64,000 nt of DNA. Source: Azoarcus sp. Lineage in GTDB: Bacteria > Pseudomonadota > Gammaproteobacteria > Burkholderiales > Rhodocyclaceae. The notes under the pieces are model-generated. The model saw nothing but the letters and a program-made list of their open reading frames with translations, had not been told where the DNA came from and did no database searches. Below, piece after piece: positions 8,971 through 29,164 of the stretch. Positions within the stretch are counted from its first letter, which is position 1. The number at the start of each line of letters is the position of its first letter. The translations under genes and the position numbers were made by a program. Where the stretch lies: positions 2,589-66,588 of the forward strand of contig JAISSY010000054.1 of the NCBI GenBank assembly GCA_031272995.1. Direction: 5' to 3'.

Positions 8971-10079
8971 TTGCGGGAACGGAAGTCCGCCATGAACTTC
9001 ACCAGCGTCTCGACCGCCTCCAGCGACACGGCGTTGTAAATCGAGGCGCGGATGCCGCCGACGGATTTGTGGCCTTTGAGGCCGATGAGTCCCGCCGCTT
9101 CGGCGTCCTTGACGAAGCGGGCTTCGAGTTCGGCGTCGGGCAGGTTGAAGGGCACGTTCATGTTGGAGCGGCATGCGAGGTCGACAGCGTTGCGGTAGAA
9201 GCCGTCGCTGCCGTCGATGGCGGCGTAGAGCAGTTTGGCCTTCTTGCGGTTGATTTCGGCCATCGCCGCCGTGCCGCCTTTTTCTTTCAGGCGGCTGAAC
9301 ACCAGCCCGGCCATGTAGATGGCGAAGGTGGGCGGGGTGTTTATCATCGAGGTGTCGGCGACCAGATTGCGGTAGTCGAGCAGCGTCGGGGTCGTCGGGG
9401 CGGCGTGGCCGATGAGGTCTTCGCGCACGATGACGATGGTGACGCCCGCCGGGCCGACGTTTTTCTGCGCGCCGAAATAGATGAGTCCGTAGCGCGACAC
9501 TTGCAGCGGGCGCGACAGGATATGCGAACTCATGTCGGCGACGAGCGGCACGCCCGGCGCGAGGCGCGAGAGGCGCTCGGTGAGGCGCGTTTCGTAATCC
9601 TCGTGCGCTTCGATGCCGTGGATGGTTTCGTTGGTGCACAGATGCAGGTAGGCGGCTTTGGGGTCGAAGGCGAGGGAGTCGACTTCCGGCAGGCGGCGGA
9701 ACGCGCCACCCTCCTCCGTCGTCGCCAGCAGTCGCGCCGTGCCGTATTTCGCCGCTTCCCTGTACGCCTTTTGCGACCAGGTGCCGGTGACGATGAAATC
9801 GGCGCTGCGACCGCCGAGCAGGTTCATCGGAACCTGCGCGAATTGCAGCGTCGCGCCGCCCTGCACGAACAGGACTTTATAGTTGTTCGGAATGGCGAGC
9901 AGTTCGCGCAAATCGGCTTCCGCCTGCTCGAACACCGCCATGAACGCCTTGCCGCGATGGCTGACTTCCATGATGCTGGCGCCGATGCCGTGGAAGTCGA
10001 GGAATTCCGCCTGCGCCTGCCGCAGCACGTCCGTCGGCAGGCCGGCGGGGCCGGCGCTGAAGTTGTAGGCGCGGGTCAC
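8961..10079 (-). CDS. serC: Phosphoserine aminotransferase
   Basis: [47 protein letters not shown] start overlaps the gyrA stop. Confidence 0.96.
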
Positions 10080-12694
10080 GATTCGCTTCCTTCCTCCGGC
10101 GCGGCGGGCGCGTCGCCCTCGTCTTCATCCGCGTCTGCGCTCGCGCTGCCTTCGGCGTCCTCCACCGATTCCTCCACCTTCTCGATGCTGGCGAGCACGG
10201 TGCCGTCGTCGAGGTTGATGAGGGTGACGCCCTGCGTCGAGCGTCCCATTTCGCGGATGCTTTCGACCGCGGTGCGGATGAGCACGCCGCCGGTGGAAAT
10301 CAGCATCACTTCGTCCTTCGGCTCGACCAGCGCCGCGCCGACCAGCGCGCCGTTGCGGTCGGAAGTCTGGATGGCAATCATGCCCTTGGTGCCGCGCCCG
10401 TGGCGGGTATATTCGGCAATCGGGGTGCGTTTGCCGTAGCCGTTTTCGGTGGCGGTGAGCACCGAATACTTTTCGTCGCGCGCCACCAGCATGGCGATGA
10501 CCTTCTGCCCGTCTTCGAGCGACATGCCGCGCACGCCGCGCGCGTCGCGGCCCATCGGGCGCACGTCGGTTTCGGCGAAACGCACCGCCTTGCCGGCGTC
10601 GGAGAAGAGCATCACGTCGCTGTCGCCGTCAGTAATCGCCACGCCGATGAGGTGGTCGCCGTCGTCGAGGTGGGCCGCGATGATGCCGGCCTTGCGCGGA
10701 TTGGCGAAGGCGGAGAGCGTCGTCTTCTTCACCGTGCCGTGCGCCGTGGCCATGAAGACGAAATGCTCCTCGTCGTAGGTCTTGACCGGCAGCACGGCGG
10801 TGATTTTCTCGCCCTCGATGAGCGGGAACAGGTTGACGATGGGCTTGCCGCGCGAGTTGCGCGCCCCTTCGGGCACTTCATAGACGCGCAGCCAGTAGCA
10901 GCGGCCACGACTGGAGAAACAGAGCACGGTGTCGTGGGTGTTGGCGATGAACAGGCGGTCGATGAAATCCTCGTCCTTCATCGCCGTCGCCTGCTTGCCG
11001 CGTCCGCCGCGCCGCTGCGCGCGGTAGTCGGCGAGCGGCTGGCGCTTGAAGTAACCGGCGTGCGAGAGCGTCACCACCATGTCTTCGGGGGCGATGAGGT
11101 CTTCGAGATTGATTTCGGCGGTGTTGAGCACGACTTCGGAGCGGCGCGGGTCGCCGTACTGGTTTTTGACCGCTTTCAGTTCGTCGCCGATGATGACGGT
11201 GATGCGTTCGGGGCGGGCGAGGATGTCGAGCAAATCGGCGATGAGGTCGATGACTTCGCGGTACTCAGAAACGATTTTGTCCTGCTCCAGCCCGGTGAGC
11301 CGTTGCAGCCGCAGTTCGAGTATCGCCTGCGCCTGCGCGTCGGAGAGCCGGTAGCCCTGCGCCGAAAGGCCGAATTCGGCGGGCAAATCCTGCGGACGGT
11401 AGCTGTCGGCCATGGCGCGCGAGAGCATTTCCTCCACCAGCGACGAGCGCCAGATGCGCGCCATCAATGCGCGCTTGGCTTCCGGCGGCGTCGGCGCAGC
11501 CTTGATGAGCGCGATGATTTCGTCGACGTTGGAGAGCGCCACCGCCAGACCTTCCAGCACGTGACCACGGTCGCGCGCCTTCCGCAACTCGAAAATGGTG
11601 CGGCGGGTGACGACTTCGCGCCGGTGTTCGAGGAAGCACACCAGCATTTCCTTCAGGTTCAGCAGCTTCGGCATGCCGTCGACCAGCGCCACCATGTTCA
11701 TGCCGAAGGTGTCCTGCAACTGCGTGTGCTTGTAGAGGTTGTTGAGCACCACTTCCGGCATTTCGCCGCGCTTGAGTTCGATGACCAGCCGCATCCCGGA
11801 CTTGTCGGATTCGTCCTGAATGTGGGAGATGCCCTCGATGCGCTTCTCGTTGACCAGTTCGGCGATTTTTTCCTGCAAGACCTTCTTGTTGACCTGATAG
11901 GGCAGTTCGTCGACGACGATGGCCTGCCGGTCGCTGTTGCCGATAGGCTCGAAGTGGGTGCGCGCCCGCATGATGACCTTGCCGCGCCCGGTGCGATAAC
12001 CCTCGTGCGCCCCGGCGATGCCGTAAATCAGCCCGGCGGTGGGGAAATCCGGCGCCTTGACGATGCCAATCAGGGTTTCGATGTCGGTGGCGGGGTCGTC
12101 CAGCAGGCGCAGGCAGGCGTCGACCACTTCGCCGAGATTGTGCGGCGGCACGTTGGTCGCCATCCCCACCGCGATGCCCGCCGAACCGTTGATGAGCAGC
12201 GATGGAATGCGCGTCGGCAGAATCAGCGGTTCCTGTTCGGAGCCGTCGTAGTTGGGGCCGAAATCCACCGTTTCCTTGTCGATGTCGGTGAGCATTTCGT
12301 GGCCGATGCGCGCCATGCGGATTTCGGTGTAACGCATCGCGGCGGGGCTGTCGCCGTCGACCGAACCGAAGTTGCCCTGCCCGTCGACCAGCATGTAGCG
12401 CAGCGAAAAATCCTGCGCCATGCGCACGATGGTGTCGTAGACGGCGGTGTCGCCATGCGGGTGGTATTTACCGATGACGTCGCCGACGATACGCGCCGAT
12501 TTCTTGTACGGTTTGTTCCAGTCGTTGGAGAGTTCGTGCATCGCAAAGAGCACGCGCCGGTGCACGGGCTTGAGTCCGTCGCGCGCATCCGGCAGCGCCC
12601 GCCCGACGATGACGCTCATCGCGTAGTCGAGGTACGCGTGGCGCATCTCCTCCTCAAGACTGATCGGCAGGGTCTCTTTGGCGAACTGTGTCAT
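10076..12694 (-). CDS. gyrA: DNA gyrase subunit A
   Basis: [15 protein letters not shown] catalytic Tyr, GyrA-box QRRGGRG. Confidence 0.98.
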
Positions 12695-12784: not shown

Positions 12785-13894
12785 TCAGGCCGCCGACGCC
12801 TCGCGCCCGGCGGCGAGCAGCCCGAAACGCTTCAACTGCGCGCGCAGAACGTTGCGCGAGATGCCCAACGACTTCGCCGCCCGCACCTGATTTTCACGCG
12901 CATGAGCGAAAGCGGCTCGCACCAGTTCTTCTTCCACCGTCTCGTAGAGACGCTCGCGCCCTTCGTCGAGCAGGCGACGAAAAACGCCCGCCAGTCGGGA
13001 GGCCGCGTCGCCCGCCTCGTCGTCGCCTCCACCCTGCGGCGCGAAAGCGCCCAGACCGTGCGGCAAGCGTAAATCGCCCACGTCGACGCGACCGTCCTGC
13101 GCCACGATCAGGGCGCGATGGATGACGTTTTCGAGTTCGCGGATGTTGCCTGGCCATTCGTACTCGAACAGCGCCGCCTGCGCCGCCGGGGTCAGCGTCG
13201 CTCCCCGCAGCCCCAGCTTGCCGCCATAGCGTTCGACGAACAGCCGCACCAGCGGCAGGATGTCGCCCGGTCGCTGTCGCAACGGCGGCAAGGTTACGGA
13301 AGCGATGTTGAGGCGGAAATAAAGATCCATGCGGAAATGTCCGGCGCGCACCGCATGAATCAAATCCACGTTGGTCGCCGCCACCATCCGCACGTCGATG
13401 GGCGTCGCCTTGCGCGCGCCGAGCCGCACCACACAACGTTCCTGTAACACGCGCAACAGTTTCACCTGCATGGAAAGCGGCAAATCGCCGATTTCGTCGA
13501 GAAATAGCGTGCCGCCATGCGCCGCCTCGAACCACCCGGCGCGCGCCTGTCCCGCGCCGGTGAATGCGCCGGCTTCGTGGCCGAACAACTCCGCCTCCAC
13601 CAGATTCTCGTTGAAAGCGCCGCAATTGACCGCCACGAACGGCCCGCTGCGCCCGCTTTTCTGGTGAATATGGCGCGCGATCAGTTCCTTGCCGGTTCCG
13701 GTTTCGCCCACCACCAACACCGAAGCGTCGCTCGCCGCCAGCCGTTCGACCTCCTCCAGCAGGCCCACCGAACGCGAGTCGCGGAACACCAACACGCGCG
13801 CCCGAATCGAGAGCGAATGCTCCTGCGGCGAGGCAAAAGTCAAAACCGTATTTTCTGGATTTCCGTGCAGTTGCCGGACGACACTCGATGCCAT
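12785..13894 (-). CDS. Sigma-54-dependent enhancer-binding protein, SfnR-like, lacking an N-terminal regulatory domain
   Basis: GETGTGKE, intact GAFTGA loop, LFLDEIG, WPGNIRELEN, C-terminal Fis-type HTH (NQVRAAKSLGISRNVLR). The short N-terminus LTF...SIRARVLVF resembles Pseudomonas SfnR as I recall it. Confidence 0.85.
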   Translation of the reverse strand: MASSVVRQLHGNPENTVLTFASPQEHSLSIRARVLVFRDSRSVGLLEEVERLAASDASVLVVGETGTGKELIARHIHQKSGRSGPFVAVNCGAFNENLVEAELFGHEAGAFTGAGQARAGWFEAAHGGTLFLDEIGDLPLSMQVKLLRVLQERCVVRLGARKATPIDVRMVAATNVDLIHAVRAGHFRMDLYFRLNIASVTLPPLRQRPGDILPLVRLFVERYGGKLGLRGATLTPAAQAALFEYEWPGNIRELENVIHRALIVAQDGRVDVGDLRLPHGLGAFAPQGGGDDEAGDAASRLAGVFRRLLDEGRERLYETVEEELVRAAFAHARENQVRAAKSLGISRNVLRAQLKRFGLLAAGREASAA

Positions 13895-13976
13895 ATTGGG
13901 TTCCGCGTTCCGTGAAGAATTTCACGCCTTCATCGACGCGAAGCATCGCCCGGCAACGCTCGCCGGCAAACAAAAA

Positions 13977-14010
13977 ATATCTGCTTTGAATCGAAGGACG
14001 GCGCAGATAT
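13977..14010. repeat. 8-bp perfect inverted repeat ATATCTGC-N18-GCAGATAT between vapC and the activator gene
   Basis: Seen directly in the sequence. Confidence 0.7.
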
Positions 14011-14026
14011 GTAAATGAAGATTTAT

Positions 14027-14425
14027 TTATTCAAGCAGGCGCACCGATTGCCCCTGCTTTTGCAGAATGGCGATGGCCTGTTTATCGAATGAGGCGAAGG
14101 TTTTGCCGCCCAGCATCGTGCCTTCGTAGGCCATAACGCCGTCAGCGAAATCGCCGCCCGCCTCCAGCACGGCAAGTCCGGCTTCCACGGCGGGACGATT
14201 CATCGTCACGCTGCGCACGGCCAACAAATCCCGAATGGTCGCCGCGACCTCCTCTTTCGACAATTTCGCGCCCTGACGGAGCACCCACACCAGTTCGCAC
14301 AGACAGGGCAGGGAAACAGCTATCAACGACGCCTCCCGAAGCAGTCTGGACGCCACCACGGCCTGCGCGGGATCGTCCTGCAACACCGCGCGCGCCAGCA
14401 CATTGGTATCGGCGGTGATCTTCAC
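14027..14425 (-). CDS. vapC: PIN-domain toxin (VapC family)
   Basis: GTG start at 14425 overlaps the antitoxin TGA. Acidic residues in ADTNV, CELVW, GDFADG and SFDK. Confidence 0.9.
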   Translation of the reverse strand: MKITADTNVLARAVLQDDPAQAVVASRLLREASLIAVSLPCLCELVWVLRQGAKLSKEEVAATIRDLLAVRSVTMNRPAVEAGLAVLEAGGDFADGVMAYEGTMLGGKTFASFDKQAIAILQKQGQSVRLLE

Positions 14426-14682
14426 GCTTCGTCCTTGCCGCCCGCCCACCCTGCGGCGGCGATTCGGTTCATTTCCTCGATCGTCAGCGGCTTTTTCAGC
14501 TTGCCCGCGTGCCGCCCGATGAAGTTCTCGATGCTGCCCGCCGGGCGCTCAGCGCGCAGGCGCAACTCGCCACCCGGCAGTTTGTCGAGTTCGATTCGCT
14601 CTCCCGGCTTGATGCCGAGGTATTGCAGCAAATCCCGTTTGAGCGTGACTTGGCCTTTCATGCTTACAGCGAGCGCGGTCAT
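14422..14682 (-). CDS. vapB: AbrB/MazE/SpoVT-family antitoxin (VapB)
   Basis: MTALAVSMKGQVTLKRDLLQYLGIKPGERIEL is the AbrB-fold signature; SD GGAG upstream. Confidence 0.88.
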   Translation of the reverse strand: MTALAVSMKGQVTLKRDLLQYLGIKPGERIELDKLPGGELRLRAERPAGSIENFIGRHAGKLKKPLTIEEMNRIAAAGWAGGKDEA

Positions 14683-14716
14683 CGCGGTCTCCAGCGGTTG
14701 GTTCCAAAACACCACC

Positions 14717-14744
14717 ATAGTAATGAAATTTTTACTTACCGCAA
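14717..14744 (-). promoter_or_regulatory. Putative sigma-70 promoter of vapBC with an imperfect palindromic operator
   Basis: TTGCGG-N16-TACTAT on the minus strand; imperfect dyad GTAATGAAAT/TTTTACTTAC across the spacer. Confidence 0.55.
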
Positions 14745-14756
14745 GCGCGAATTTCA

Positions 14757-14794
14757 CTGCTTCATTTGCAGCAATCGAGTTGCCAGCGCAGCAG
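14757..14794 (+). promoter_or_regulatory. Candidate tandem upstream activator sites (two YTGC-N7-GCAG dyads, 23 bp apart)
   Basis: CTGCTTCATTTGCAG (14757-14771) and TTGCCAGCGCAGCAG (14780-14794), 65-100 bp upstream of the -24 element. Confidence 0.45.
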
Positions 14795-14838
14795 CCGCTT
14801 GGGCGTCGCCGCCTTTTCGCACGAAACAAATTCCATTA

Positions 14839-14851
14839 ATTCAATTAGTTA
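14839..14851 (+). promoter_or_regulatory. IHF-like site
   Basis: ATTCAATTAGTTA has one mismatch to WATCAANNNNTTR and sits in an AT-rich tract just upstream of the sigma-54 promoter. Confidence 0.55.
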
Positions 14852-14856
14852 AAAAC

Positions 14857-14872
14857 TGGCACATCTCCTGCT
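14857..14872 (+). promoter_or_regulatory. Sigma-54 (-24/-12) promoter
   Basis: TGGCAC-ATCTC-CTGCT, exact GG-N10-GC spacing, about 70 bp upstream of the receptor start. Confidence 0.85.
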
Positions 14873-14943
14873 GTTGGGCGTTTCCTGAATACGCCGGGCG
14901 AAAGAATCCGGCGGCCCTTTCCCCTTCGATCATGGAGATTTCA

Positions 14944-17751
14944 ATGTTCCTCTCGCCCCCATCATCCCTGCGGATGAAGCCGTTGCGAGCCGCCATATTG
15001 GGAAGTCTGTTGCTGGTCGGCGCGCCGGTGGCTGCGCAAGACGGCGAGGTCAGCGTCGAAAGCCTGCAAAAGCAGGTCGAGGACTTGCGGAAAGCGTTGG
15101 AAGAAAGCCAGCGCGAGTTGGCAGCCGAACGGGCGCGCTCGTCCGCAGTTGCGCCCGCCGAGACGCCTCCCGCCGAAGTCCCCGCCGACCCGGCAGCCGC
15201 CGCACAGGAATCCGAATCCGCGCCCACGCCTGAGCCGGTCGCGGAGGATTCCACCGGCGAGCAGAGCCTTGAAGCAGTCGTCATCAAGCGGCGCAAGGTG
15301 CAGCCAATCGAAGAATTGAAGGAGACGCCGAAATCGGTTTCCGTCGTCACCGGAGCAGAACTGGAAAACCTCGGCGCCACCGACGTCACGCAGGTTCTGA
15401 ACCGGATCGGCAACGTCAACTTCAACTACGGCAACCCGCGCACCGGGTCGCTCACCCTGCGCGGCATCACCACCGGCTCCAACGACCAGATCGGCCCTAC
15501 GGTCGGAACCGAAATCGACGGCGTCCCCATCGCCTATACGCCGCTCTCCAACGGCTTTCCGTTCGTCGACATCGACTCGGTCGGGGTTGCGCGCGGCCCG
15601 GTCGGCACGCGTGGCGGCAGGATTTCCAACATTGGCCGGATCACGTTCAAATCCAAAAAGCCTACCTTCACGCCCGAAGCCAATATTTCCGTCACCCTCG
15701 GCGAATGGGACACCCTGAAAACGTCGGCGGTGGTGGGCGGGCCGGTGGTCGACGGACTGCTGGCGTGGCGCGGCACCATCCTGCGCGAACAGGGCGACGG
15801 CCCGTGGGAAACCCAATTCAAGGATCTCGAAGGTCGCGGCAGCTACAAGAACGTCGACCGCACTTTCGGACGCGTCCAGTTGTTGTTTACGCCAAGCGAA
15901 AATTTCAAGGCGAACCTGAGCGTCGAACATCAACCCAAGGGCAGCGAATGGGTGAACGGTCTCAGCCAGCGCCATCCCGAACCGACGACCTACCGCGACG
16001 GCACGCCACGCTCGGCGGCCTCCATCGACACCGCCTACAAGAAATATCAGCGCGACTGGTTCAACAAGGATCCGGCGCTGTGGGACACGACGCGCGACTA
16101 CTACCGCTATCCGGTCTACGTCGACAACAACGGCGCGATCATCACCAGTTCGAAGGGCTGGACGCTGAACGCCGAATTGAAAGTGCCCGGCCACACCATC
16201 GAATCCATCACCAGTTGGCGCTCGCACTGGTTCTCGGCGGCCAACGACGAAGGCACCCCCTACGACGTCACCAAGAGCGGCGGCTACATCACCAGCTACT
16301 CGCAACGCAGTCAGGAATTGCGCCTGACTTCGGACAAGGACGACAAGTTCGAATACGTCGCGGGACTTTTCTTCCTTTCCTCCGACAACGATTCCTTGGG
16401 TGGCCGCACACGTTGGGGCAACGACGCCGGCGCTTATCAGGCCAACAACGCGCAATACGCGGCGCTGAACGCCGACGGCGCCGGTCAGGCCATGCTGCGG
16501 GATTCCCTCAACGGCGCTTACAAATATCCGAGGGCATACGTTAAGAACAAGGAATTTTCGATTTTCGGCGAAACCGACTGGCACATCACCGCGCCGCTGA
16601 CGCTGACCACCGGCGCGCGCGTCTCGTGGGAGAAGCGCCGCACCGATCAGGAAAACGTGCTCGACGACCCCGGCGTCGGCGCCAACTTCTCCAAAGCCTT
16701 CGGCATCACCACCAACACTTCCACCGTGCTCGACACGACGGCGGCGGACGCGTTGGCGCAACAGTATTTCGGCTCGACCTACGCCAGTCTCTCGGCGGCG
16801 CAACAGTCGCAACTGCAACAGGCGGCGGCGGTTCGCAACGGCGCGTTGCAGCAGGGCACGCTATACGCGCGCAAGTCGGCGAAGCCGTGGGAAGGCGAGG
16901 TCTATGCCGGCAACATCGCGCTCACCGACAAGATCAACGAAAACCTGACCGTCTATGGCACGGTGCAATACGGCGAAAAAGGCGGCATCGCCCAGTTGAA
17001 CAGCGCCGGAGAGTCCGCGCCGGTCGACAAGGAACGCACCACCGGACTTGAAATCGGCTTCAGGTCGTCGTTGTTCAACGACGCCCTCACCTTGAACGCC
17101 GACGTGTTCATCAACGAGGTCAAGGATTTCCAGACCACGGTGGCCGAACTCGACCCGGCGGCGACCGCCGCCTATCAGGCCGCCAATCCTGGGCTTCCGG
17201 CCAGCGAAACCCAGCAATACCAGAGTCTGGTCGGCAACCTTCCCAAGGTGCGCATCAAGGGGGTGGAAATCGACGCCCTCTACAAGGGCGTCAAGAATCT
17301 GACCCTGCGGCTGGCGGCTTCCTACAACGACGCGCGTTACGCCGACGACACATATCTCGCGCAACCGAGCGACATCCAGTGGGGAGCGGGAACCGGGCGC
17401 AGCCAGTATTACAACGTCAAGGGCGAAACCCTGAGCAACGCGCCGAAATTCACCGCCATTCTGGGGGCAGATTACAGACGGCCCATCCTGGGCAACTGGG
17501 ACTTCCACGCCGCCGCCAACTACAAGTGGACGAGCGCCTATTACACCTCGAACGGCAGGCCCAAATACAACCGGCAGGACGCCTACGGGCTGCTCGACGT
17601 GGCCTTCGGCATAGGCCGTCGGGACGGCGCTTTCGACGCCAACATCATCATCCGCAACGCTCTCGACGAGGACTATCACGTCGAAGGCTGGAGCAGCTAC
17701 ACGCCGGCGACCCCGCGCTGGGCCGGCATCGTTTTCTCAAGCCACTTCTAA
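14944..17751 (+). CDS. TonB-dependent outer-membrane receptor (~935 aa) with an N-terminal coiled-coil extension
   Basis: SD GGAGA 5 nt before ATG 14944; signal peptide; TonB-box-like EAVVIK; plug (IDGVP...ARGPVGT); beta-barrel periodicity; C-terminal Phe (SSHF). Confidence 0.92.
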   Translation: MFLSPPSSLRMKPLRAAILGSLLLVGAPVAAQDGEVSVESLQKQVEDLRKALEESQRELAAERARSSAVAPAETPPAEVPADPAAAAQESESAPTPEPVAEDSTGEQSLEAVVIKRRKVQPIEELKETPKSVSVVTGAELENLGATDVTQVLNRIGNVNFNYGNPRTGSLTLRGITTGSNDQIGPTVGTEIDGVPIAYTPLSNGFPFVDIDSVGVARGPVGTRGGRISNIGRITFKSKKPTFTPEANISVTLGEWDTLKTSAVVGGPVVDGLLAWRGTILREQGDGPWETQFKDLEGRGSYKNVDRTFGRVQLLFTPSENFKANLSVEHQPKGSEWVNGLSQRHPEPTTYRDGTPRSAASIDTAYKKYQRDWFNKDPALWDTTRDYYRYPVYVDNNGAIITSSKGWTLNAELKVPGHTIESITSWRSHWFSAANDEGTPYDVTKSGGYITSYSQRSQELRLTSDKDDKFEYVAGLFFLSSDNDSLGGRTRWGNDAGAYQANNAQYAALNADGAGQAMLRDSLNGAYKYPRAYVKNKEFSIFGETDWHITAPLTLTTGARVSWEKRRTDQENVLDDPGVGANFSKAFGITTNTSTVLDTTAADALAQQYFGSTYASLSAAQQSQLQQAAAVRNGALQQGTLYARKSAKPWEGEVYAGNIALTDKINENLTVYGTVQYGEKGGIAQLNSAGESAPVDKERTTGLEIGFRSSLFNDALTLNADVFINEVKDFQTTVAELDPAATAAYQAANPGLPASETQQYQSLVGNLPKVRIKGVEIDALYKGVKNLTLRLAASYNDARYADDTYLAQPSDIQWGAGTGRSQYYNVKGETLSNAPKFTAILGADYRRPILGNWDFHAAANYKWTSAYYTSNGRPKYNRQDAYGLLDVAFGIGRRDGAFDANIIIRNALDEDYHVEGWSSYTPATPRWAGIVFSSHF

Positions 17752-17775
17752 CCACGAACAAACCGGAGCTTCTCC

Positions 17776-18213
17776 ATGAACGACAAGATCGTCAAACCCC
17801 TCGCCGCCCTCGTGGCCGCCGCCGCGCTGGCGAGCGCCGCGCCCGCCATCGCCCACCATGCCTTCGCCGCCGAATTCGACGCCAACCAACCCGTCGAATT
17901 GCGCGGCATCGTGACCAAGGCGCGCTGGGTCAATCCGCATAGCTGGCTGTACATCGACGTCAAGGACGCCTCCGGCGAAGTCACCAACTGGGGCTTCGAA
18001 TTCGGCGCGCCAAACACCTTGCAGAATCGCGGCCTGCAAAAAGCCGATCTGAAGGTCGGCACCGAAGTCTTCATCAAGGGCTACCGCTCCAAGAACGGCG
18101 GGCCGTTCGGCTATTCCGTCTTCATCACCCTGCCCGACGGTCGCAGCATCCAGACCGGCGGCGCGCAGGACGCGCCCAAGGACGAACCCGCCCAACCGGG
18201 AGCCGCCAGTTGA
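17776..18213 (+). CDS. DUF6152-type secreted protein
   Basis: Signal peptide ending AIA, then HHAFAAEFD...WVNPHSWLYIDV...WGFEFG; family recognised from memory of these motifs. Confidence 0.75.
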   Translation: MNDKIVKPLAALVAAAALASAAPAIAHHAFAAEFDANQPVELRGIVTKARWVNPHSWLYIDVKDASGEVTNWGFEFGAPNTLQNRGLQKADLKVGTEVFIKGYRSKNGGPFGYSVFITLPDGRSIQTGGAQDAPKDEPAQPGAAS

Positions 18214-19010
18214 ACGCCACCGAACCGCGCCGCCGCTTTCTGGGCGCTTTCGCGGCTCTGGCGCTGTCGACCGGCGTCGTCGCCATGACGGTTCCGGTCG
18301 GAGCCGCCGCGGCGGCGGGCAAGATTCCCCGTCTCGACAACGGCAAGCCCGATTTCTCCGGCATCTGGCAAACGACGAGCGCTGCCGAATACGACCTCGA
18401 ACCCCACATCGGTCGCGTCGACGCGCCGCCGGGGCCGGGAGTCGTGATCGACGGCGACGGCTTCATCCCTTATCTGCCCAAGGCGCTCGAACAAAAACAA
18501 AAGAACTTCGCGGCGCGGCAGAGCGCCGACCCCACCGCCAAAGGCTACACGCAGGGCGTGCCGCGCCAGATATACAGCCTTTATCCGTTCCAGATTCTGC
18601 AACGGGCGCGCGACGTCACCATCGTCCCGCAGTTCGGCTATTCGATTCGCACCATCCACACCAACGGCACCAAACACCCGACCGAGGACAACGATTTCTG
18701 GCTCGGCGATTCGCGCGGACATTGGGAAGGCGACACGCTGGTGGTGGACATCACCGATTTCTACGACGAAACCTGGCTCGACCGCGCCGGCAACTTCCAC
18801 TCCTCCGACCTGCACGTGGTCGAACGCTGGAAGTTTCTCGACGCCAACACCATCGAATACCGGGCGACGCTGGAAGACCCGCAGGTGTACGCGCAGCCAT
18901 GGACGCTGAGCGTGATTCTTCACCGTCACCGCGAAAAGAACTTTCAACTGATCGAGGACTACCGCTACACGCTGCCCTACGACCAGTACTACCCGCCCAA
19001 GAAACCCTGA
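18210..19010 (+). CDS. Uncharacterised periplasmic protein (paralog A), putative Tat substrate
   Basis: TTG start overlaps the upstream TGA. RRRFL Tat-like motif; GKPDFSGIW and GDSRGHWEGDTLVV motifs shared with the next gene. Confidence 0.8.
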   Translation: MNATEPRRRFLGAFAALALSTGVVAMTVPVGAAAAAGKIPRLDNGKPDFSGIWQTTSAAEYDLEPHIGRVDAPPGPGVVIDGDGFIPYLPKALEQKQKNFAARQSADPTAKGYTQGVPRQIYSLYPFQILQRARDVTIVPQFGYSIRTIHTNGTKHPTEDNDFWLGDSRGHWEGDTLVVDITDFYDETWLDRAGNFHSSDLHVVERWKFLDANTIEYRATLEDPQVYAQPWTLSVILHRHREKNFQLIEDYRYTLPYDQYYPPKKP

Positions 19011-19037
19011 GCCATCAGTGAAACGGGATATATCTCC

Positions 19038-20054
19038 ATGAAACGCATTTTTCCGCTTCCCTCTCTGACGCTGGCGCTATTGACCGCGACCGCCGCCGTC
19101 GCCCAAACGCCGCCGCCCGCCGCGCCCGGACAACCGCAAACGCAAGTCCGTCAGGGCGGCATCGGTTTCGAGACGAGCTTCCCGCAAATCGCCGCCGCGA
19201 AATGGACGGGGCCGCGACTCAAGGACGGACAACCGGACGTTTCCGGCCACTGGTCGAACACCATCGCCAATCACAACAATTTCACCGACCCGCAGGGCGG
19301 CATCATTGGCGACCCGACGCCGCGCGCGGTGGCTTTCCGCGCCGCCAATCATCCGCGCGCGGAGCGCGCCCCCAGCCGGGTGAGCGACCCGGCGGACGGT
19401 CAGCCGCCGTTCCAGCCCTGGGCGGCGGCGAAGGTGAAGGAGTTTCAGGAAAACTTCAACAATCCGGTCAAGCCCGAATACACCGAGCCGAACGCCCGTT
19501 GCGCGCCGGGAGGCATCCCGAAATCCTTCTACTGGCACGGTTACGAAATCCGCCAGTATCCGGGCTATGTGCTCATCATGTTCAACAACGGCTATCGCCT
19601 GATTCATCTCGACGGCAAGCCGCATCTGCCGGAGCGGCTGAAGTTGTGGAACGGCGATTCGCGCGGCCATTGGGAAGGCAACACGCTGGTGGTGAGCGCG
19701 CGCAACGTCAACGGCAAGGCGCTGTTCGGTCGCTCCGGCGAGTTCTTCAGCGAAAACGCCAGGGTCGACGAGCGTTTCATCTTCGCCAACGACGGCAAAC
19801 GCTACAACTATGTTGCGGTCATCACCGACCCGACCGTGTTTACGCGCCCCTTCACCGTCACCATTCCGGCGCGGCGCTACACCGAAGCCGACAAATACAA
19901 CGAGTGGCATTACGAAGCCACGCCCGCCAATTACGACGGCAAAGCGCCGCTGCACGAGCGTTACGAGCGCATCTGCCACGAGAACAACGGCGGCTTCGGC
20001 GCGCCGGCAATCACATCGGCGCCAGCCGCCCCACCTGCGGCGACGAAAAACTGA
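19038..20054 (+). CDS. Uncharacterised periplasmic protein (paralog B)
   Basis: Sec-type signal peptide; GQPDVSGHW, RCAPGGIP, GDSRGHWEGNTLVV, ICHENN. Confidence 0.82.
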   Translation: MKRIFPLPSLTLALLTATAAVAQTPPPAAPGQPQTQVRQGGIGFETSFPQIAAAKWTGPRLKDGQPDVSGHWSNTIANHNNFTDPQGGIIGDPTPRAVAFRAANHPRAERAPSRVSDPADGQPPFQPWAAAKVKEFQENFNNPVKPEYTEPNARCAPGGIPKSFYWHGYEIRQYPGYVLIMFNNGYRLIHLDGKPHLPERLKLWNGDSRGHWEGNTLVVSARNVNGKALFGRSGEFFSENARVDERFIFANDGKRYNYVAVITDPTVFTRPFTVTIPARRYTEADKYNEWHYEATPANYDGKAPLHERYERICHENNGGFGAPAITSAPAAPPAATKN

Positions 20055-20102
20055 ACCCCAACGACACCTCCTCTCCCATCACCATCGAAAGGTTTATCTC
20101 CC

Positions 20103-20597
20103 ATGTCCATCCTGCTTGAATTCGCCCAAGACTTGCAGCATTCGGGGCTTGGCACGGCGCTGGCCGAGTCGCGCTACGCGTTTCCGATCATCGAGGGCAC
20201 GCATCTGATCGGGCTTTCCATCTCGGTCGGATTGCTGTTTCTCATCGACCTGCGCCTGATCGGAGCGTTTCTGAAACAGGTGCCGGCGAACACGCTGCTG
20301 CGGCAGTTGTTGCCCATCGTGCTGTGGGGCTTCGCCGTCATCTTCGTCACCGGATTGCTGCTGTTTACCGCCGAGGCGGACACGATCATCGTCAGCCCGG
20401 TCTTCCCGATCAAGCTCCTGTTGCTGTTGCTGGGCGGCCTGAACGCGCTCTATTTCGAGTTCAAGCTCTCGCGCGAGCTGGAGTTCCAGAACAGCACCGC
20501 CGCCGTACTGCCCGCCAAGGTGCGCTACGCCGGCTACGCCTCGCTCATCCTGTGGGTGCTGGTCATCATCGCCGGGCGCATGTTGGCCTATCTCTAA
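20103..20597 (+). CDS. DUF6644-type 4-TM membrane protein (copy 1)
   Basis: EGTHLIG...DLRLIG, four hydrophobic segments, C-terminal LW...AGR. Confidence 0.75.
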   Translation: MSILLEFAQDLQHSGLGTALAESRYAFPIIEGTHLIGLSISVGLLFLIDLRLIGAFLKQVPANTLLRQLLPIVLWGFAVIFVTGLLLFTAEADTIIVSPVFPIKLLLLLLGGLNALYFEFKLSRELEFQNSTAAVLPAKVRYAGYASLILWVLVIIAGRMLAYL

Positions 20598-20615
20598 TAA
20601 TTCGGAGTCATACGC

Positions 20616-21089
20616 ATGTCTACACTCGACGTTTTGACCGCGCTGGCCGCCAGCCCTCTCGGACAGGCCATCGGCCAGTCCAACCACCTCGTGGGCGCGA
20701 CGGCGCAGGTGTTTCACATTCTGGGCTTCGTCGCCCTGCTCGCCTCGGTGGTGTTTATAAACCTGCGCCTGCTCGGACGGGTGTTGCCCAACGTGCCCTT
20801 GCAGGAGGTCGTTCGCCTGCCGGTGAAATTCATCTGGTGGGGATTCGGCTTCGCCAGCGTCAGCGGCCTGCTGATGTTCATCGCGGTGCCGACGCTGTAT
20901 TACGCCAACCCGGCGTTCATCCTCAAGCTGGTGCTGTACGTGCTCGCCATCGTCTTCCAGATCGTCCTCTACCAATACACGCTGCGCCAAAAGAATCCCG
21001 AAAAATCGCTGGTTTTGGCGAGCGTGGCGCTGTCGGTGATTCTGTGGTTCGGCGTCGGGCTGGCGGGTCGGGCGATCGGCTATGTCTAG
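20616..21089 (+). CDS. DUF6644-type 4-TM membrane protein (copy 2)
   Basis: QVFHILG...NLRLLG, FILKL, LW...AGR; same motif layout as copy 1. Confidence 0.75.
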   Translation: MSTLDVLTALAASPLGQAIGQSNHLVGATAQVFHILGFVALLASVVFINLRLLGRVLPNVPLQEVVRLPVKFIWWGFGFASVSGLLMFIAVPTLYYANPAFILKLVLYVLAIVFQIVLYQYTLRQKNPEKSLVLASVALSVILWFGVGLAGRAIGYV

Positions 21090-21678
21090 GATTCCCGCTC
21101 CGCGCCTCGCCGCGCCCACCGCGCTCGCGCTTGCGCTGTCCGCCCTCGTCGTGCTGGCGGCGGCTTGCAGCGACGGCCACGCCTCGCGCACGGCCACGCC
21201 GCCCTTCAAGGTGAGCGCCACGATTCAGGAAATCATGGCCAACATCATCGACCCCGCCGCCGACGAGACCTGGGAATCGGTGAGCGAGGAATGGGACAAA
21301 GACGGCCACCGCGAGCACAAACCCGAAACCGACGAGCAATGGCTCGCGGTGCTCAACCACGCCGTCGCCTTGCAGGAGTCCGCCGATTTGCTGACGATTC
21401 CGGGGCGCGCCGTCGCGCCGCCGGGAAAGAATCTGGAGGATTCCGGCGTCGCCGGCATTCTCGACGCCGCCGGCGTGGAAGCGGCGATCAAAATCGACCC
21501 GGAGGCTTACGCAGCCTTCATCGCCGCCTACCACGAAGCCGCGCATGAACTGGTCGTCGCCGCACAGAACCGGGACGTCGAAAGTTTGAAACTCGGCGGC
21601 GCGCGACTGGACGCGGTTTGCGAAGCCTGCCACGCCCGTTTCTGGTATCCCGATGCGCAAAAAGCTCCGACGCGCTGA
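21082..21678 (+). CDS. Lipoprotein c-type cytochrome, class II (four-helix-bundle) like
   Basis: Lipobox LAAAC; single CEACH near the C-terminus (nt 21619-21633); helical, Ala-rich. Confidence 0.78.
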   Translation: MSRIPAPRLAAPTALALALSALVVLAAACSDGHASRTATPPFKVSATIQEIMANIIDPAADETWESVSEEWDKDGHREHKPETDEQWLAVLNHAVALQESADLLTIPGRAVAPPGKNLEDSGVAGILDAAGVEAAIKIDPEAYAAFIAAYHEAAHELVVAAQNRDVESLKLGGARLDAVCEACHARFWYPDAQKAPTR

Positions 21679-22096
21679 GTTCGCGCTCCTCCTGTTGCTG
21701 CTGCTTCCCGCGCTGGTCGTCGCCGGGGCGGCGAAGAACAACGCCGTCCTGCGTCTGATGAAGGCCAAGGTCATTCCCGCCTCCACCGTCGTGTTCGAAG
21801 CGGCAGCCGAAGCGCCGGCGAACGGCGCCGGCTGGCAGGCGGCGCTGCAAGCAGCTGACGCGCTCGCCGCCGCAGCTGAGGAACTGAAGCCGACGCCGCG
21901 CGGTTTCGCGGCGACGCCATGGCAGAACGACGTCGCCGCTTTCGCCGACGCGGCGCGCGCCACACGTCAGGCCGTCGCCCGCCGCGACGCCGCCGCACTG
22001 GAAGCGTCGAACGGCGCGCTCTACCAAAGCTGCGAAACCTGCCACACCGACTACCCGCCGCGTGCGGTTTCCGCGCGCGTTTCCGCCCGACCCTGA
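21653..22096 (+). CDS. Periplasmic c-type cytochrome, class II like
   Basis: Signal peptide; C-terminal CETCH (nt 22031-22045); paralogous layout to the upstream cytochrome. Confidence 0.72.
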   Translation: MRKKLRRAEFALLLLLLLPALVVAGAAKNNAVLRLMKAKVIPASTVVFEAAAEAPANGAGWQAALQAADALAAAAEELKPTPRGFAATPWQNDVAAFADAARATRQAVARRDAAALEASNGALYQSCETCHTDYPPRAVSARVSARP

Positions 22097-22117
22097 ACTT
22101 CGTTTCGTTTTCATTCC

Positions 22118-22789
22118 ATGAGCTACGCACCCGCTTTCACCACTTCCTACGCCGCCCGCCAGCGCGACCCGCGCCGCCATTTGACCGGCATCGTTCTGGC
22201 GGTGATTTTCCACGTCGCGCTCGGCTATGCGCTGTTGAACGGGCTGGCGCGCGAGGTCGTCAAGGCGATCCGCGACCCGTTGTCGGTGCGGCTGATCGAG
22301 GAAATCAGGCCGTCGCCGCCGCCTCCCCCGCCGCCGCCGCCGAAAAAAATCGCCCGCGTGCAGGCCAAGCCGCGCGCCACGCCGCCGCCGGCATGGGTTC
22401 CGCCGCCGGAAGTTCAGGTCACCGCGCCGACGGTGGAGCCGCCAATCACCGTGGTGCAGCAGGCCGCACCCCCCGAACCCGCGCCTGCGGTGGCCGCGCC
22501 TGCGCCCGCTCCGGTCGCCGCCGCCATCGGCGTCACCTGCCCCAACCACCTGAGCATCCGCAGCAGCGTGGATTACCCGCCGCAAGCCTTGCGCCTGAAC
22601 AAAAGCGGAGAGGTGGTGGCGGAATTCGTCGTCGATACGAAGGGAAAGATCGGCAACGTCCGCATCGCCAAATCCAGCGACCCGATTTTCAACAAAGCCG
22701 TCACCGACGCCGTGCGCCGCTTCAACTGCGTCGGGCAAGGCCGTCCGGTGCGCGTCACCGTGCCTTTCCAGTTCGCGCTGGAAAACTGA
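22118..22789 (+). CDS. tonB: Energy transducer TonB
   Basis: N-terminal TM with SxxxH-type His (AVIFHVA), Pro-rich linker, YPPQA C-terminal domain. Confidence 0.9.
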   Translation: MSYAPAFTTSYAARQRDPRRHLTGIVLAVIFHVALGYALLNGLAREVVKAIRDPLSVRLIEEIRPSPPPPPPPPPKKIARVQAKPRATPPPAWVPPPEVQVTAPTVEPPITVVQQAAPPEPAPAVAAPAPAPVAAAIGVTCPNHLSIRSSVDYPPQALRLNKSGEVVAEFVVDTKGKIGNVRIAKSSDPIFNKAVTDAVRRFNCVGQGRPVRVTVPFQFALEN

Positions 22790-22823
22790 AGGCGCTCATC
22801 TTTTTATTTCCCCGGAGAACGTC

Positions 22824-23579
22824 ATGGCCGACCCTGTCATCGCTACCCATCTCGCCGCCGAAGTCATCGCCAATCCCTACGGGCTGGACGCCCTGTGGGC
22901 GCAAGGCGATTTCGTCGCCAAGGGCACCCTGATCATCCTGCTGCTGCTGTCGGCGGCAAGCTGGTACGTCATCTTCACCAAACTCTACGAACAGGAAAAA
23001 CTGCGCCGTCACGCCCGCGAAGCGCAGCGCAAATTCTGGATCGCCGCCGGCATCCGCGAAGGCGCAGACGCGCTCGATCCGAACGGCGCTTTCCGCTTCA
23101 TCGCCCAATCCGGGCTGAACGCCAAGGAGCGCCACGTCGGCCTGCTCGAACACATCGACCTCAACACCTGGATCGGCCAATCCATCCAGCGCGCGGTCGA
23201 AAACGTGCAGACGCGCTTGCAGGACGGGCTGGCGCTGCTCGCCACCGTCGGCTCCACCGCGCCGTTCATCGGGCTGTTCGGCACCGTCTGGGGCATCTAC
23301 CACGCCCTCACCGCCATCGGCATCGCCGGACAGGCGTCGATCGACAAGGTGGCCGGCCCGGTGGGCGAATCGCTGATCATGACCGCCATCGGTCTGGCAG
23401 TGGCCGTTCCCGCCGTGCTCGGCTACAACTGGCTGGTTCGCCGCAACAAGACCGCCCTCGACGAGGTGCGCGCCTTCGGCGCCGACTTGCACGCGACGCT
23501 GCTGGGCGGCGAAACCGCGCACAGCGCCGCCGCCAGCGTCGGCGTGGCGTCGGCCAAGCTCGCCGTGGCGCGGGGCTGA
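22824..23579 (+). CDS. exbB: ExbB / MotA-TolQ proton channel
   Basis: LATVGSTAPFIGLFGTVWGI and ESLIMTAIGL motifs. Confidence 0.93.
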   Translation: MADPVIATHLAAEVIANPYGLDALWAQGDFVAKGTLIILLLLSAASWYVIFTKLYEQEKLRRHAREAQRKFWIAAGIREGADALDPNGAFRFIAQSGLNAKERHVGLLEHIDLNTWIGQSIQRAVENVQTRLQDGLALLATVGSTAPFIGLFGTVWGIYHALTAIGIAGQASIDKVAGPVGESLIMTAIGLAVAVPAVLGYNWLVRRNKTALDEVRAFGADLHATLLGGETAHSAAASVGVASAKLAVARG

Positions 23580-23581
23580 CC

Positions 23582-24004
23582 ATGGGAATGAACGTCTCGA
23601 CCGGCGGCGACGACGAGGAAGTCATCTCCGCCATCAACACCACGCCGCTGGTGGACGTGATGCTGGTGCTGCTCATCATCTTTCTCATCACCATTCCGGT
23701 GGCGATTCAGGTCGTGCCGGTGCGACTGCCCGAACAGAACAATCTGGCGCTGGAAACCAAACCGGAGAACGTCAACCTGTCGGTGACGCGCGGCGGGCGG
23801 GTGTACTGGAATCAGGAATGGCTCGAAGACGACGCGCTGCTGGCGCGGCTGAAAGAGACCGCGACGCTTCAGCCGCAACCGGAAGTCCACATCCGCGGCG
23901 ACGGCGGCGCGCCATACGAGCACATCGGGCGCGTCGTGCTCGCCTGCCAGCGCGCCGGCATCGCCAAGGTCGGATTCATCACCGAACCGCCGCCACGCGG
24001 CTGA
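23582..24004 (+). CDS. exbD: ExbD/TolR (copy 1)
   Basis: INTTPLVDVMLVLLIIF and IRGD motifs; true start ATG 23582 lies inside the longer ORF-track entry. Confidence 0.92.
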   Translation: MGMNVSTGGDDEEVISAINTTPLVDVMLVLLIIFLITIPVAIQVVPVRLPEQNNLALETKPENVNLSVTRGGRVYWNQEWLEDDALLARLKETATLQPQPEVHIRGDGGAPYEHIGRVVLACQRAGIAKVGFITEPPPRG

Positions 24005-24017
24005 GGAGAAAGACATC

Positions 24018-24446
24018 ATGGCCATGACCGTAGGCTCTCCCGCCGCCGACGCCGCACCGGAAGTGATGGTGGACATCAACACCACGCCCTTGATCGACGT
24101 GATGCTGGTACTGCTCATCATGCTGATCGTCACCATCCCGATCCAGTTGCACGCGGTCAAGCTCGATCTGCCGCAAGGCAACCCGCCCCCGCCGCTGGTG
24201 GAGCCGGAAGTGGTGCGCATCAATATCGAAAGCGACGGAATCGTTTACTGGAACGGCGAAGCCGTCGAGAGCCTCGCCGTCCTCGAACCCCGTCTGCAAG
24301 CCGCCGCCCTGCAACCGACGCCGCCCGAAATCCACGTCCGCCCGGATCGCGCCGTGCTCTACGACACCGTCGCCGCCGTAATGGCGGCGATTCAGCGCAA
24401 CGGTTTGACCAAGGTGGGTTTGGTGGGGGCGGAACAGTTTTTGTGA
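24018..24446 (+). CDS. exbD: ExbD/TolR (copy 2)
   Basis: INTTPLIDVMLVLLIML motif. Confidence 0.92.
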   Translation: MAMTVGSPAADAAPEVMVDINTTPLIDVMLVLLIMLIVTIPIQLHAVKLDLPQGNPPPPLVEPEVVRINIESDGIVYWNGEAVESLAVLEPRLQAAALQPTPPEIHVRPDRAVLYDTVAAVMAAIQRNGLTKVGLVGAEQFL

Positions 24447-24483: not shown

Positions 24484-25266
24484 TCACCCGCCGACCTTCT
24501 CCAGCAGCCGCTTGATGAATTGCACCGGAATCGCGTAGCTGATGCCGGAGGGCTGGCTGAGGACGTTTTCCTTGCTGCCCTTGACGAGCACCATGTTGAC
24601 GATGCCGAGCACCTTGCCGCTGTCGGCATCGTAGAGCGGGCTGCCGCTATTGCCGGGGTAGGCGGTGGCGTCGAGCTGGTAGACGTGCATGGCGTCGCGT
24701 TGCAGGTTGCGAATCATCGTGGTGCTGAGTTCGGCGGCGTTGCGTTGCGGCATCGCGAACGGGGTGACGGCGGCGACGATGCCGCGATGGGTGGCGGGCA
24801 CCATGCCGAGCACGCCGCCGATGGGAAAGCCGGTGAAGGCGATGCGCTGGCCTTCGCGCGCCGCCTCTCCCAAGGGCAGCGCGGGCAACGGCGCGCCGTC
24901 GTCGAAACGCAGCAGGGCGAGATCGCGCACGGAGTCGATTTCCAGCCGCGTCAATTGCCGCACGCGGCGCTCCGGGCTTTCGCCGGCTTGCACCATGACC
25001 AGCGTCTCCATGCTTTCGCTGGCGAGGATTTCCGGCAAGACGTGCGCGTTGGTGACGACGTGACGACCGTTGCCGACCACGAAACCGGTGCCGCGAAACT
25101 GGAACGACGGGCTGCGAGTGCGCTGCCAAGTGCCGATGGCGACCACCGACGGTTTGACGCGCGCAATCGTGTCGACGAGATCGGCGCGCGCCGGAGCGGC
25201 GGCGGCAAGCGCCATGCAGGCCGCCAACGCGGCGCGCAACAGGCGACGACGCGCGTCCACGAACAC
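24484..25266 (-). CDS. Secreted trypsin-like (S1) serine protease
   Basis: Triad TNAHV / RDLALL / GNSGSP; signal peptide; SD GGAGG; GTG start overlaps the upstream TAG. Confidence 0.85.
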   Translation of the reverse strand: MFVDARRRLLRAALAACMALAAAAPARADLVDTIARVKPSVVAIGTWQRTRSPSFQFRGTGFVVGNGRHVVTNAHVLPEILASESMETLVMVQAGESPERRVRQLTRLEIDSVRDLALLRFDDGAPLPALPLGEAAREGQRIAFTGFPIGGVLGMVPATHRGIVAAVTPFAMPQRNAAELSTTMIRNLQRDAMHVYQLDATAYPGNSGSPLYDADSGKVLGIVNMVLVKGSKENVLSQPSGISYAIPVQFIKRLLEKVGG

Positions 25267-26561: not shown

Positions 26562-26586
26562 GAAAGCTCCCTTGAAGTTCGTTGTT

Positions 26587-29163: not shown

Positions 29164-29164
29164 C

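Follow-up and report, generated by a model that had tools for sequence, protein, structure and literature searches.

We analyzed a stretch of 64,000 nucleotides from an Azoarcus sp. contig (JAISSY010000054.1; the whole stretch is called the window here) and found that a noncoding region at 14757-14872 is probably the control region of the 12-gene TonB operon that follows it, with a sigma-54 promoter activated by a protein of the SfnR family. Two imperfect 18-bp palindromes in this region are very probably the sites at which an SfnR-family activator acts on the promoter, and it seems reasonably likely that the gene for an activator of this type in the neighborhood encodes the protein that binds them.

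The promoter region at 14757-14872

The -24/-12 element reads TGGCAC-ATCTC-CTGCT (TGGCACATCTCCTGCT) and lies on the plus strand at 14857-14872; its GG (14858-59) and GC (14870-71) have the spacing GG-N10-GC. An earlier account of this DNA (below, the sequence-only reading) had reported the element as TGGCAC-N5-CTGCT, and it is indeed there: over both strands of the 64 kb, the exact pattern TGGCAC-N5-YTGCW occurs at this position only, with 0.09 matches expected from shuffles. Transcription is predicted to start near 14883, which would give a leader of about 61 nt. The -12 GC is 72 nt from the ATG of the first gene of the operon, a receptor gene, at 14944, and GGAG stands 6 nt before that ATG.

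Upstream of the promoter are two copies of an 18-bp palindrome with a 7-4-7 arrangement, CTGYTGC-N4-GCARCAG (here, the box). Site 1 (CTGCTTC-ATTT-GCAGCAA, 14757-14774) is centered at about -117.5, and site 2 (GAGTTGC-CAGC-GCAGCAG, 14777-14794) is centered at about -97.5; each has two mismatches to the box, and they score 18.0 and 15.1, respectively, against a matrix built only from sites in other genomes. By this matrix they rank second and third among the 63,983 positions of the window, the first being position 33560, inside an open reading frame of 572 aa, which bears out the earlier proposal that tandem activator sites lie upstream of a sigma-54 promoter here. The 20-bp spacing corresponds to two helical turns, so that both sites lie on the same face of the DNA.

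The sequence-only reading had described the pair as dyads of the form YTGC-N7-GCAG, namely, CTGC-TTCATTT-GCAG at 14757-14771 and TTGC-CAGCGCA-GCAG at 14780-14794, with starts 23 bp apart. Both dyads are present, but their register is wrong, since this parse joins an outer CTGC from one half-palindrome to an inner GCAG from the other; the palindrome centers are 20 bp apart, not 23. The pattern YTGC-N7-GCAG has 23 strand matches in the window, at 14 distinct places and mostly in coding sequence, against 7.7 expected, and since it is so common, the N7 parse carries little weight. An extended form of this parse, TGCTGC-N7-GCAGCA, was tried and rejected: it did no better than background and matched the LLRVLQ codons of activator genes, and the 7-4-7 palindrome fits far better.

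Between the sites and the promoter, at 14824-14856 on the plus strand, is a 33-bp tract of 70-85% A+T in a window whose G+C content is 64.5%, and this tract is a candidate for a bend. Within it, as had been noted before, is a sequence resembling a site for integration host factor (IHF), ATTCAATTAGTTA at 14839-14851, which is centered at about -38 and agrees with WATCAANNNNTTR at 12 of 13 positions. Matches of this grade number 17 in the window against 10.8 expected, so the match taken alone does not rise above chance. In related loci, an IHF match with no more than one mismatch lies between the activator sites and the -24 box in 12 of 15 Rhodocyclales promoters of the same gene cluster, with centers at -43 to -83. 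IHF binding at 14839-14851 is plausible on these sequence matches.

From this arrangement we infer binding and looping of the following kind. Sigma-54 RNA polymerase would sit in a closed complex on TGGCAC-N5-CTGCT, and dimers of an SfnR-family activator would occupy the two 18-bp palindromes (about -117.5 and about -97.5) and assemble into an active AAA+ ring. The ring would reach the polymerase by looping over the IHF-like, AT-rich tract directly next to the -24 box, and ATP hydrolysis would then open the promoter, giving a start near 14883. At glnAp2 and glnHp2 of enteric bacteria, tandem palindromes for NtrC, an activator with a Fis-type helix-turn-helix (HTH), are found about 100-140 bp upstream of the -24/-12 element and on the same face of the DNA, and glnHp2 has an IHF bend in the intervening DNA. 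The window resembles these promoters in having tandem palindromic sites on one face upstream of a -24/-12 element; its box is different in sequence from that of NtrC (TGCACC-N5-GGTGCA), and whereas NtrC is switched by phosphorylation of its receiver domain, the activator in the window has no such domain.

The activator and its box in related loci

The candidate activator is encoded on the minus strand at 12785-13894. Its product, a sigma-54 enhancer-binding protein of 369 aa, has the organization of SfnR: a short conserved N-terminus, an AAA+ domain with GAFTGA (Pfam Sigma54_activat at 2.9e-66 over residues 39-200, with AAA_lid_14), a Fis-type HTH (HTH_8, residues 318-357), and, with the AAA+ domain starting at residue 39, no N-terminal sensor or receiver domain. 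Identity to the SfnR proteins of Pseudomonas aeruginosa is 56-58% at full length: 57.6% over the full length for SfnR2, encoded beside the genes of H3 type VI secretion, and 56% over residues 15-364 for SfnR1, encoded after msuEDC. This chromosomal region of P. aeruginosa (sfnR2-PA2358-msuEDC-sfnR1) was found by tblastn against plasmid records. NCBIfam has no curated equivalog model for SfnR, and none of its equivalogs reached the cutoff with the window protein (for PspF, the best score was 275.6 bits where 443.55 are needed); one close homolog (P0066) is named SfnR at NCBI. Relatives of the activator make up a large family, and the 69 closest homologs inspected show hardly any variation in the HTH helix, LGISRN(V/I)LR(A/T)QLKRFG.

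SfnR of Pseudomonas putida DS1 and SfnR1 and SfnR2 of P. aeruginosa are described as sigma-54 activators of genes for the utilization of dimethylsulfone and methanesulfonate (sfnFG, msuEDC). Unlike in those systems, the target in the window is not a set of FMNH2-dependent monooxygenases but a receptor/TonB/ExbBD operon with four uncharacterized protein families. Organosulfur monooxygenase genes (sfnFG, msuEDC) were found neither beside the sites nor among the annotated window genes, and the sole box-bearing promoter found in the window drives the receptor operon; this argues against strict orthology with SfnR, though not against membership in its family.

Since the activator has no sensor domain, control must lie in its amount or in a partner protein. 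PspF and HrpR/HrpS are likewise sensor-less, constitutively competent AAA+ activators whose output is set by amount or by a partner protein; no gene for a PspA- or HrpV-like partner was identified here. Paired activator paralogs, as in HrpR/HrpS, are seen in relatives: Variovorax (L001, 4248-7047) has two adjacent SfnR-type genes on the same strand, and Xylophilus (L002, 2647-7044) has two on the same strand about 2 kb apart, with products 52-53% and 61-65% identical to the window protein. The second of the Variovorax genes has a -24/-12 promoter of its own.

Related loci were taken to be those that encode relatives of the activator or of the receptor. Most of the useful ones came from exact-protein look-ups, and scans of genomes and metagenomes with the activator yielded few true orthologs, the peptide patterns being too specific. 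In six loci, -24/-12 promoters precede orthologous genes for the receptor or for DUF6152, the product of the second gene of the operon. These are TGGCAC-ATGAA-TCGCA in a Dechloromonas metagenome-assembled genome (MAG; L170); GGGCAC-ATGAA-TTGCG with a divergent TGGCAT-AGTCG-TTGCG in a Rhodocyclales locus (L171); TGGCAC-ATGCT-TTGCT and TGGCAC-GCTAC-TTGCT in a metagenome contig (L172); GGGCAC-ACTAT-TCGCT and TGGCAC-GCCTC-TTGCC in Azonexus (L174); TGGCAG-ATGTC-TTGCT in an Azoarcus MAG (L169); and CGGCAT-GCTAT-TTGCT in Xylophilus (L002). Several loci have three -24/-12 promoters inside one cluster.

The box was derived by eye from the aligned 280 nt upstream of 19 promoters, where it is seen, for example, as CTGTTGC-GCCA-GCAACAG (L171), TTGCTGC-CATC-GCAGCAA (L169), CTGTTGC-CGGC-GCAGCAG (L170), and CTGCTGC-ATGC-GCAGCAA (Variovorax). 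Because it was first seen by eye, it was checked in three ways: by an unbiased count of 7-mers, by the matrix from nonwindow sites, and in independent annotated records. Matches with up to two mismatches number 20 in the 5.3 kb upstream of the 19 promoters, compared to 0.26 in dinucleotide shuffles; the background in real high-G+C DNA is 0.13-0.16 per kb, which places the enrichment upstream of promoters at about 25-fold. With the window left out, the top words of the 7-mer count are TGCTGCG, CTGTTGC, TGTTGCG, CTGCTGC, and TTGCTGC, and A/T runs and AATCAAT, the IHF core, are enriched as well.

Of 16 pairs of neighboring sites, 10 have a center-to-center distance of 30-32 bp and two, those of the window and of one L171 promoter, a distance of 20 bp. 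The promoters can be described as long or short. Long ones, which include most of the Rhodocyclales cluster promoters, have sites at about -145 to -215 and an IHF-consensus match at -43 to -83, and short ones have sites at or near -117.5/-86.5 and no IHF match. The receptor promoter of Thauera butanivorans has its sites at -117.5/-97.5, as in the window, with an AT-rich tract against the -24 box; these sites are weaker, with three mismatches each and only the proximal one scoring above 10.

The matrix was made from Rhodocyclales and Variovorax sites, and the records of P. aeruginosa, Burkholderia glumae, and Burkholderia pyrrocinia were not used in building the motif. In P. aeruginosa, the best matrix match of the 18.7-kb locus is the perfect palindrome CTGTTGCCCGGGCAACAG, with a weaker second copy 31 bp on, and the pair stands at -117.5/-86.5 from TGGTAC-GGCCC-TTGCT, just before msuE. 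The top three matches of the whole locus in B. glumae, and the top three noncoding matches in B. pyrrocinia, all fall between the activator gene and msuE-sfnG; in both species the activator homolog is divergent from msuE-sfnG(-sfnB), and the boxes are upstream of TGGCAC-type promoters. The window is like msuE of P. aeruginosa in having the 18-bp palindrome upstream of a -24/-12 element with one center at -117.5, and it differs from it in the distance between sites, 20 bp compared to 31. It also has an AT-rich, IHF-like tract, and none was found at the short promoters of P. aeruginosa, Thauera, and Azoarcus.

The sequence-only reading had put the dyads forward as a candidate new motif that could define the regulon of the activator. 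Novelty does not hold up: to judge from these sequence comparisons, the box is an enhancer common to the SfnR-type family of sensor-less activators, present before msuE in P. aeruginosa and before msuE-sfnG in two Burkholderia records. The regulon fared better, as about 20 further -24/-12 promoters of related loci have the box upstream. Literature searches with the box sequence returned nothing useful. We note also that the activator-gene codons for the conserved LLRVLQ read CTGCTGCGCGTGCTGCAG (13442-13459 in the window, 6388 in L001, 9403 in L175, and others), which matches the box almost perfectly and has a score of 17. This look-alike, probably a coincidence of coding, can mislead scans for the regulon.

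The intervening cassette and alternative explanations

A 717-bp vapBC-like toxin-antitoxin cassette (14027-14743, minus strand), including its own promoter region, lies between the activator gene and the sites. It encodes a PIN toxin (vapC, 14027-14425; 26.4 bits against a cutoff of 23.6) and an AbrB/SpoVT-like antitoxin (vapB, 14422-14682; a weak AbrB match with an E value of 0.0035, below the cutoff), both on the minus strand, and the two genes share a GTGA start/stop overlap at 14422-14425. An activator gene beside its target is a feature that the window has in common with the SfnR systems, and the cassette that splits the gene from the sites is one that it does not. The proposal that the adjacent activator binds the dyads thus holds in part: the nearby gene is the obvious candidate, but it is not adjacent.

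In metagenome run X2, one contig (depth 2) runs from 14026 to 14744 by way of AAGGCC, and the shorter arm of this joint is 30 nt long. This allele is without vapC, vapB, and their promoter, and both activator sites lie outside the missing segment; with the cassette gone, the activator gene and the operon diverge directly at a distance of about 340 bp. The cassette appears to be an insertion/deletion polymorphism, though the evidence is thin. A 17-nt direct repeat, 15 of 17 positions identical, is found at 13917-13933, just upstream of the activator gene, and at 14749-14765, overlapping the left half of site 1 (rough chance of about 0.05). It was considered as a target duplication of the toxin-antitoxin insertion and rejected, since the X2 allele, joined as it is, retains both copies. 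By eye, TTGCGG-N16-TACTAT can be read as a sigma-70-type promoter for vapB; a sigma-70 promoter scan of the intergenic region gave nothing at the scan threshold, and an Rfam scan of 13800-15200 gave no RNA element. The DNA between vapC and the activator gene showed no convincing intrinsic terminator (z = -0.41), so that read-through into the activator gene is possible.

Other explanations of the region have to be weighed. The palindromes may be real SfnR-type sites that are bound by a paralog encoded elsewhere, the nearness of the neighboring gene being incidental. Paralogs could share sites, given a recognition helix that hardly varies within the family, and several family members can occur in one genome (two in Thauera humireducens and the tandem pairs in Variovorax and Xylophilus); in the L169-L174 receptor clusters, moreover, boxes are present and no activator gene lies within 5 kb, and the closest syntenic orthologs of the activator are not beside such a cluster within the 200-400 bp available. 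Nevertheless, promoters with the box have a family member at a distance of 0.1-4 kb in Variovorax, Thauera, Azoarcus TTM-91, P. aeruginosa, and the two Burkholderia records as well as in the window, and in the cassette-free allele the activator gene directly diverges from the operon, and we consider a paralog from elsewhere rather unlikely. It is quite improbable, in our judgment, that a minus-strand sigma-54-like match, TGGCAA-CTCGA-TTGCT at 14770-14785, is a second, divergent promoter for vapBC, for the activator gene, or for both, with autoregulation and with the dyads being in part its -24/-12 boxes. This match has one mismatch to the consensus (10 of 11 positions in a separate scan), the activator ortholog in Variovorax has an upstream -24/-12 promoter of its own (TGGCACGGACGCTGCT), Xylophilus has a weaker one read by eye (TGGCGT-GAACA-CTGCT), and vapC is not set off from the activator gene by any convincing terminator. 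However, the match falls exactly where two half-sites of the box meet (GCAGCAA-TCGA-GTTGCCA), the right one of site 1 and the left one of site 2, and has most likely arisen as their by-product; the other pairs with 20-bp spacing (L082, L171) contain no GG-N10-GC, no further box lies upstream of the match on the minus strand, and an activator bound at both sites would occupy the divergent promoter. One-mismatch matches to the sigma-54 consensus number four in the window, where 3.6 are expected by chance.

The dyads might instead be operators through which the AbrB-type VapB antitoxin autoregulates the vapBC promoter, as a type II antitoxin typically recognizes inverted repeats at its own promoter, site 1 begins 75 bp upstream of the vapB ATG, and an imperfect inverted repeat (14719-14730 and 14750-14761) touches site 1. 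We give this almost no credence, because both sites are outside the cassette missing from the X2 allele (junction at 14744) and the box recurs at about 20 promoters in loci without a toxin-antitoxin gene. Very improbable, too, is a chance origin in CTG/CAG-rich sequence, with a -24/-12 element that is silent or that serves an unrelated activator such as PrsR, the product of a second sigma-54 activator gene in the window. It is true that YTGC-N7-GCAG is frequent in this DNA and that the 18-bp box has coding look-alikes, but two of the top three window matches of the window-blind matrix fall in a single noncoding stretch of 173 bp, a site at -117.5 is found likewise at msuE of P. aeruginosa and at transporter promoters of Thauera and Azoarcus (L082, L083), and the orthologs have kept the promoter, box pairs, and AT tract as a set.

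Control of the operon by an SfnR-family activator at 14757-14872 is the reading that we prefer, and several observations count against it. Both sites in the window are imperfect, their 20-bp spacing is the rarer form, and the box is codon-like, with a real background in coding DNA. The IHF-like center is nearer the promoter than those of the orthologs; at about -38 it would touch the polymerase footprint, so that the sequence may be an intrinsic bend only. Genes for rpoN and IHF were not identified in the partial annotation of the 64 kb. Among public sequencing runs, the window sequence was found in two metagenome DNA runs, one of them from termite gut, and in no RNA run, and the start site and sigma-54 dependence thus remain predictions. 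In L165-L168, which hold the closest syntenic orthologs (activator-gyrA-serC, 75-76% identical; gyrA of the window is at 10076-12694 on the minus strand), another gene is upstream of the activator and no box was found within the 200-400 bp there, so the pairing of activator and operon is not fixed. None of these four contigs extends more than 200-400 bp past the activator gene, which suggests that the region upstream of it is variable or repeated.

The operon and a possible link to sulfur

The operon comprises 12 tightly packed genes on the plus strand (14944-24446), with gaps of 0-50 bp between genes and a 261-bp gap to the antitoxin gene. It begins with a TonB-dependent receptor of 935 aa (14944-17751; Pfam Plug and TonB_dep_Rec_b-barrel) and continues with DUF6152 (17776-18213), two proteins here called p266 (18210-19010) and p338 (19038-20054), two DUF6644 membrane proteins (20103-20597 and 20616-21089), two cytochrome c'-like proteins (21082-21678 and 21653-22096), TonB (22118-22789), ExbB (22824-23579), and two ExbD proteins (23582-24004 and 24018-24446). 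This gene set recurs in L169-L174, in several orders.

The receptor has an extension between its signal peptide and the plug (14944-15300) with a coiled-coil-like stretch, VESLQKQVEDLRKALEESQRELAAERA, and an Ala/Pro-rich linker; compared to Pfam, this N-terminal extension is not a FecA-type signaling domain. One receptor homolog carries the JGI label "Lpp." After its predicted signal peptide (…APAIA|HHAF…), DUF6152 would begin with two histidines, and we speculate that this N-terminus might bind metal. The proteins p266 and p338 are paralogs with a common DSRGHWEG-TLVV motif. For p266 there are 7,968 homologs at an E value of 1e-10 or less, of which the best 120 are 66-83% identical and come from Beta- and Gammaproteobacteria; it belongs to no Pfam or NCBIfam family, and the named copies are all called "hypothetical protein." DUF6152, DUF6644, p266, and p338 had no informative sequence match in Pfam, NCBIfam, or the PDB; a search of solved structures by sequence produced no match for p266 and, for DUF6152, none better than an E value of about 0.6. 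Literature searches on DUF6152 and DUF6644 returned nothing useful.

Beyond the operon, at 25266-30610 on the minus strand, is a PEP-CTERM/exosortase regulatory set alongside a nucleotide-sugar dehydrogenase gene. It includes PrsR, a sigma-54 response regulator (746 bits against a cutoff of 502.6), and PrsT, a tetratricopeptide repeat lipoprotein (673 bits against a cutoff of 312.2). The presence of PrsR indicates that the genome uses sigma-54 elsewhere.

The operon products are poor in sulfur. Cysteine and methionine make up 18 of 2,814 residues (0.64%) in 10 of the 12 products (14944-23579, the two ExbD proteins being left out), compared to 2.63% in the other window genes (Fisher P = 5e-13). 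The receptor has no cysteine and two internal methionines in 934 residues, and ExbB has one internal methionine in 250. The median for the receptor family is 0.38%, and the value for Escherichia coli FhuA is 2.0%; this comparison is a weak one, as outer-membrane and periplasmic proteins are often poor in both residues and FhuA is the one outside comparator used, and it tells against the sulfur interpretation to that extent.

The neighbors of related clusters point in more than one direction. Genes for luciferase-like monooxygenases adjoin related receptor genes or clusters in Variovorax and L172, and L172 also has an NMT1-like gene next to its cluster. About 6.5 kb from the receptor gene of Xylophilus, an NMT1/SsuA-like binding protein is encoded under a perfect -24/-12 promoter, upstream of which no box was found. 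On the other side, metal-related genes (FolE2 and siderophore-type exporters) are neighbors at other loci, and they speak against a role in sulfur uptake. A structure model of p266, calculated with 30 homologs, has a mean pLDDT (predicted local distance difference test) of 49 and is too poor for a fold search.

SfnR of P. putida is reportedly regulated by CysB (Endoh 2003). The kinship of the activator to SfnR, the low sulfur content of the products, and the neighboring genes make uptake under sulfur starvation the best guess for the operon, and the view that it would respond to sulfur limitation seems to us evenly poised. Tentatively, and with somewhat more doubt, the cluster may be a previously unrecognized TonB-dependent sulfur-scavenging system, widespread in Beta- and Gammaproteobacteria and driven by an SfnR paralog through a large sigma-54 regulon marked by pairs of boxes.

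The promoter itself is a textbook one, and the value of the finding lies in what it connects: a known activator family with a defined box, associated with sulfur starvation in Pseudomonas, would be tied to a conserved but uncharacterized cluster for uptake across the outer membrane. The matrix calculated from 20 sites in other genomes can be used for mapping the regulon across Rhodocyclales and Burkholderiales. If the sulfur-scavenging interpretation is true, it would give the first functional handle on several protein families to which no function has been assigned, p266 among them.

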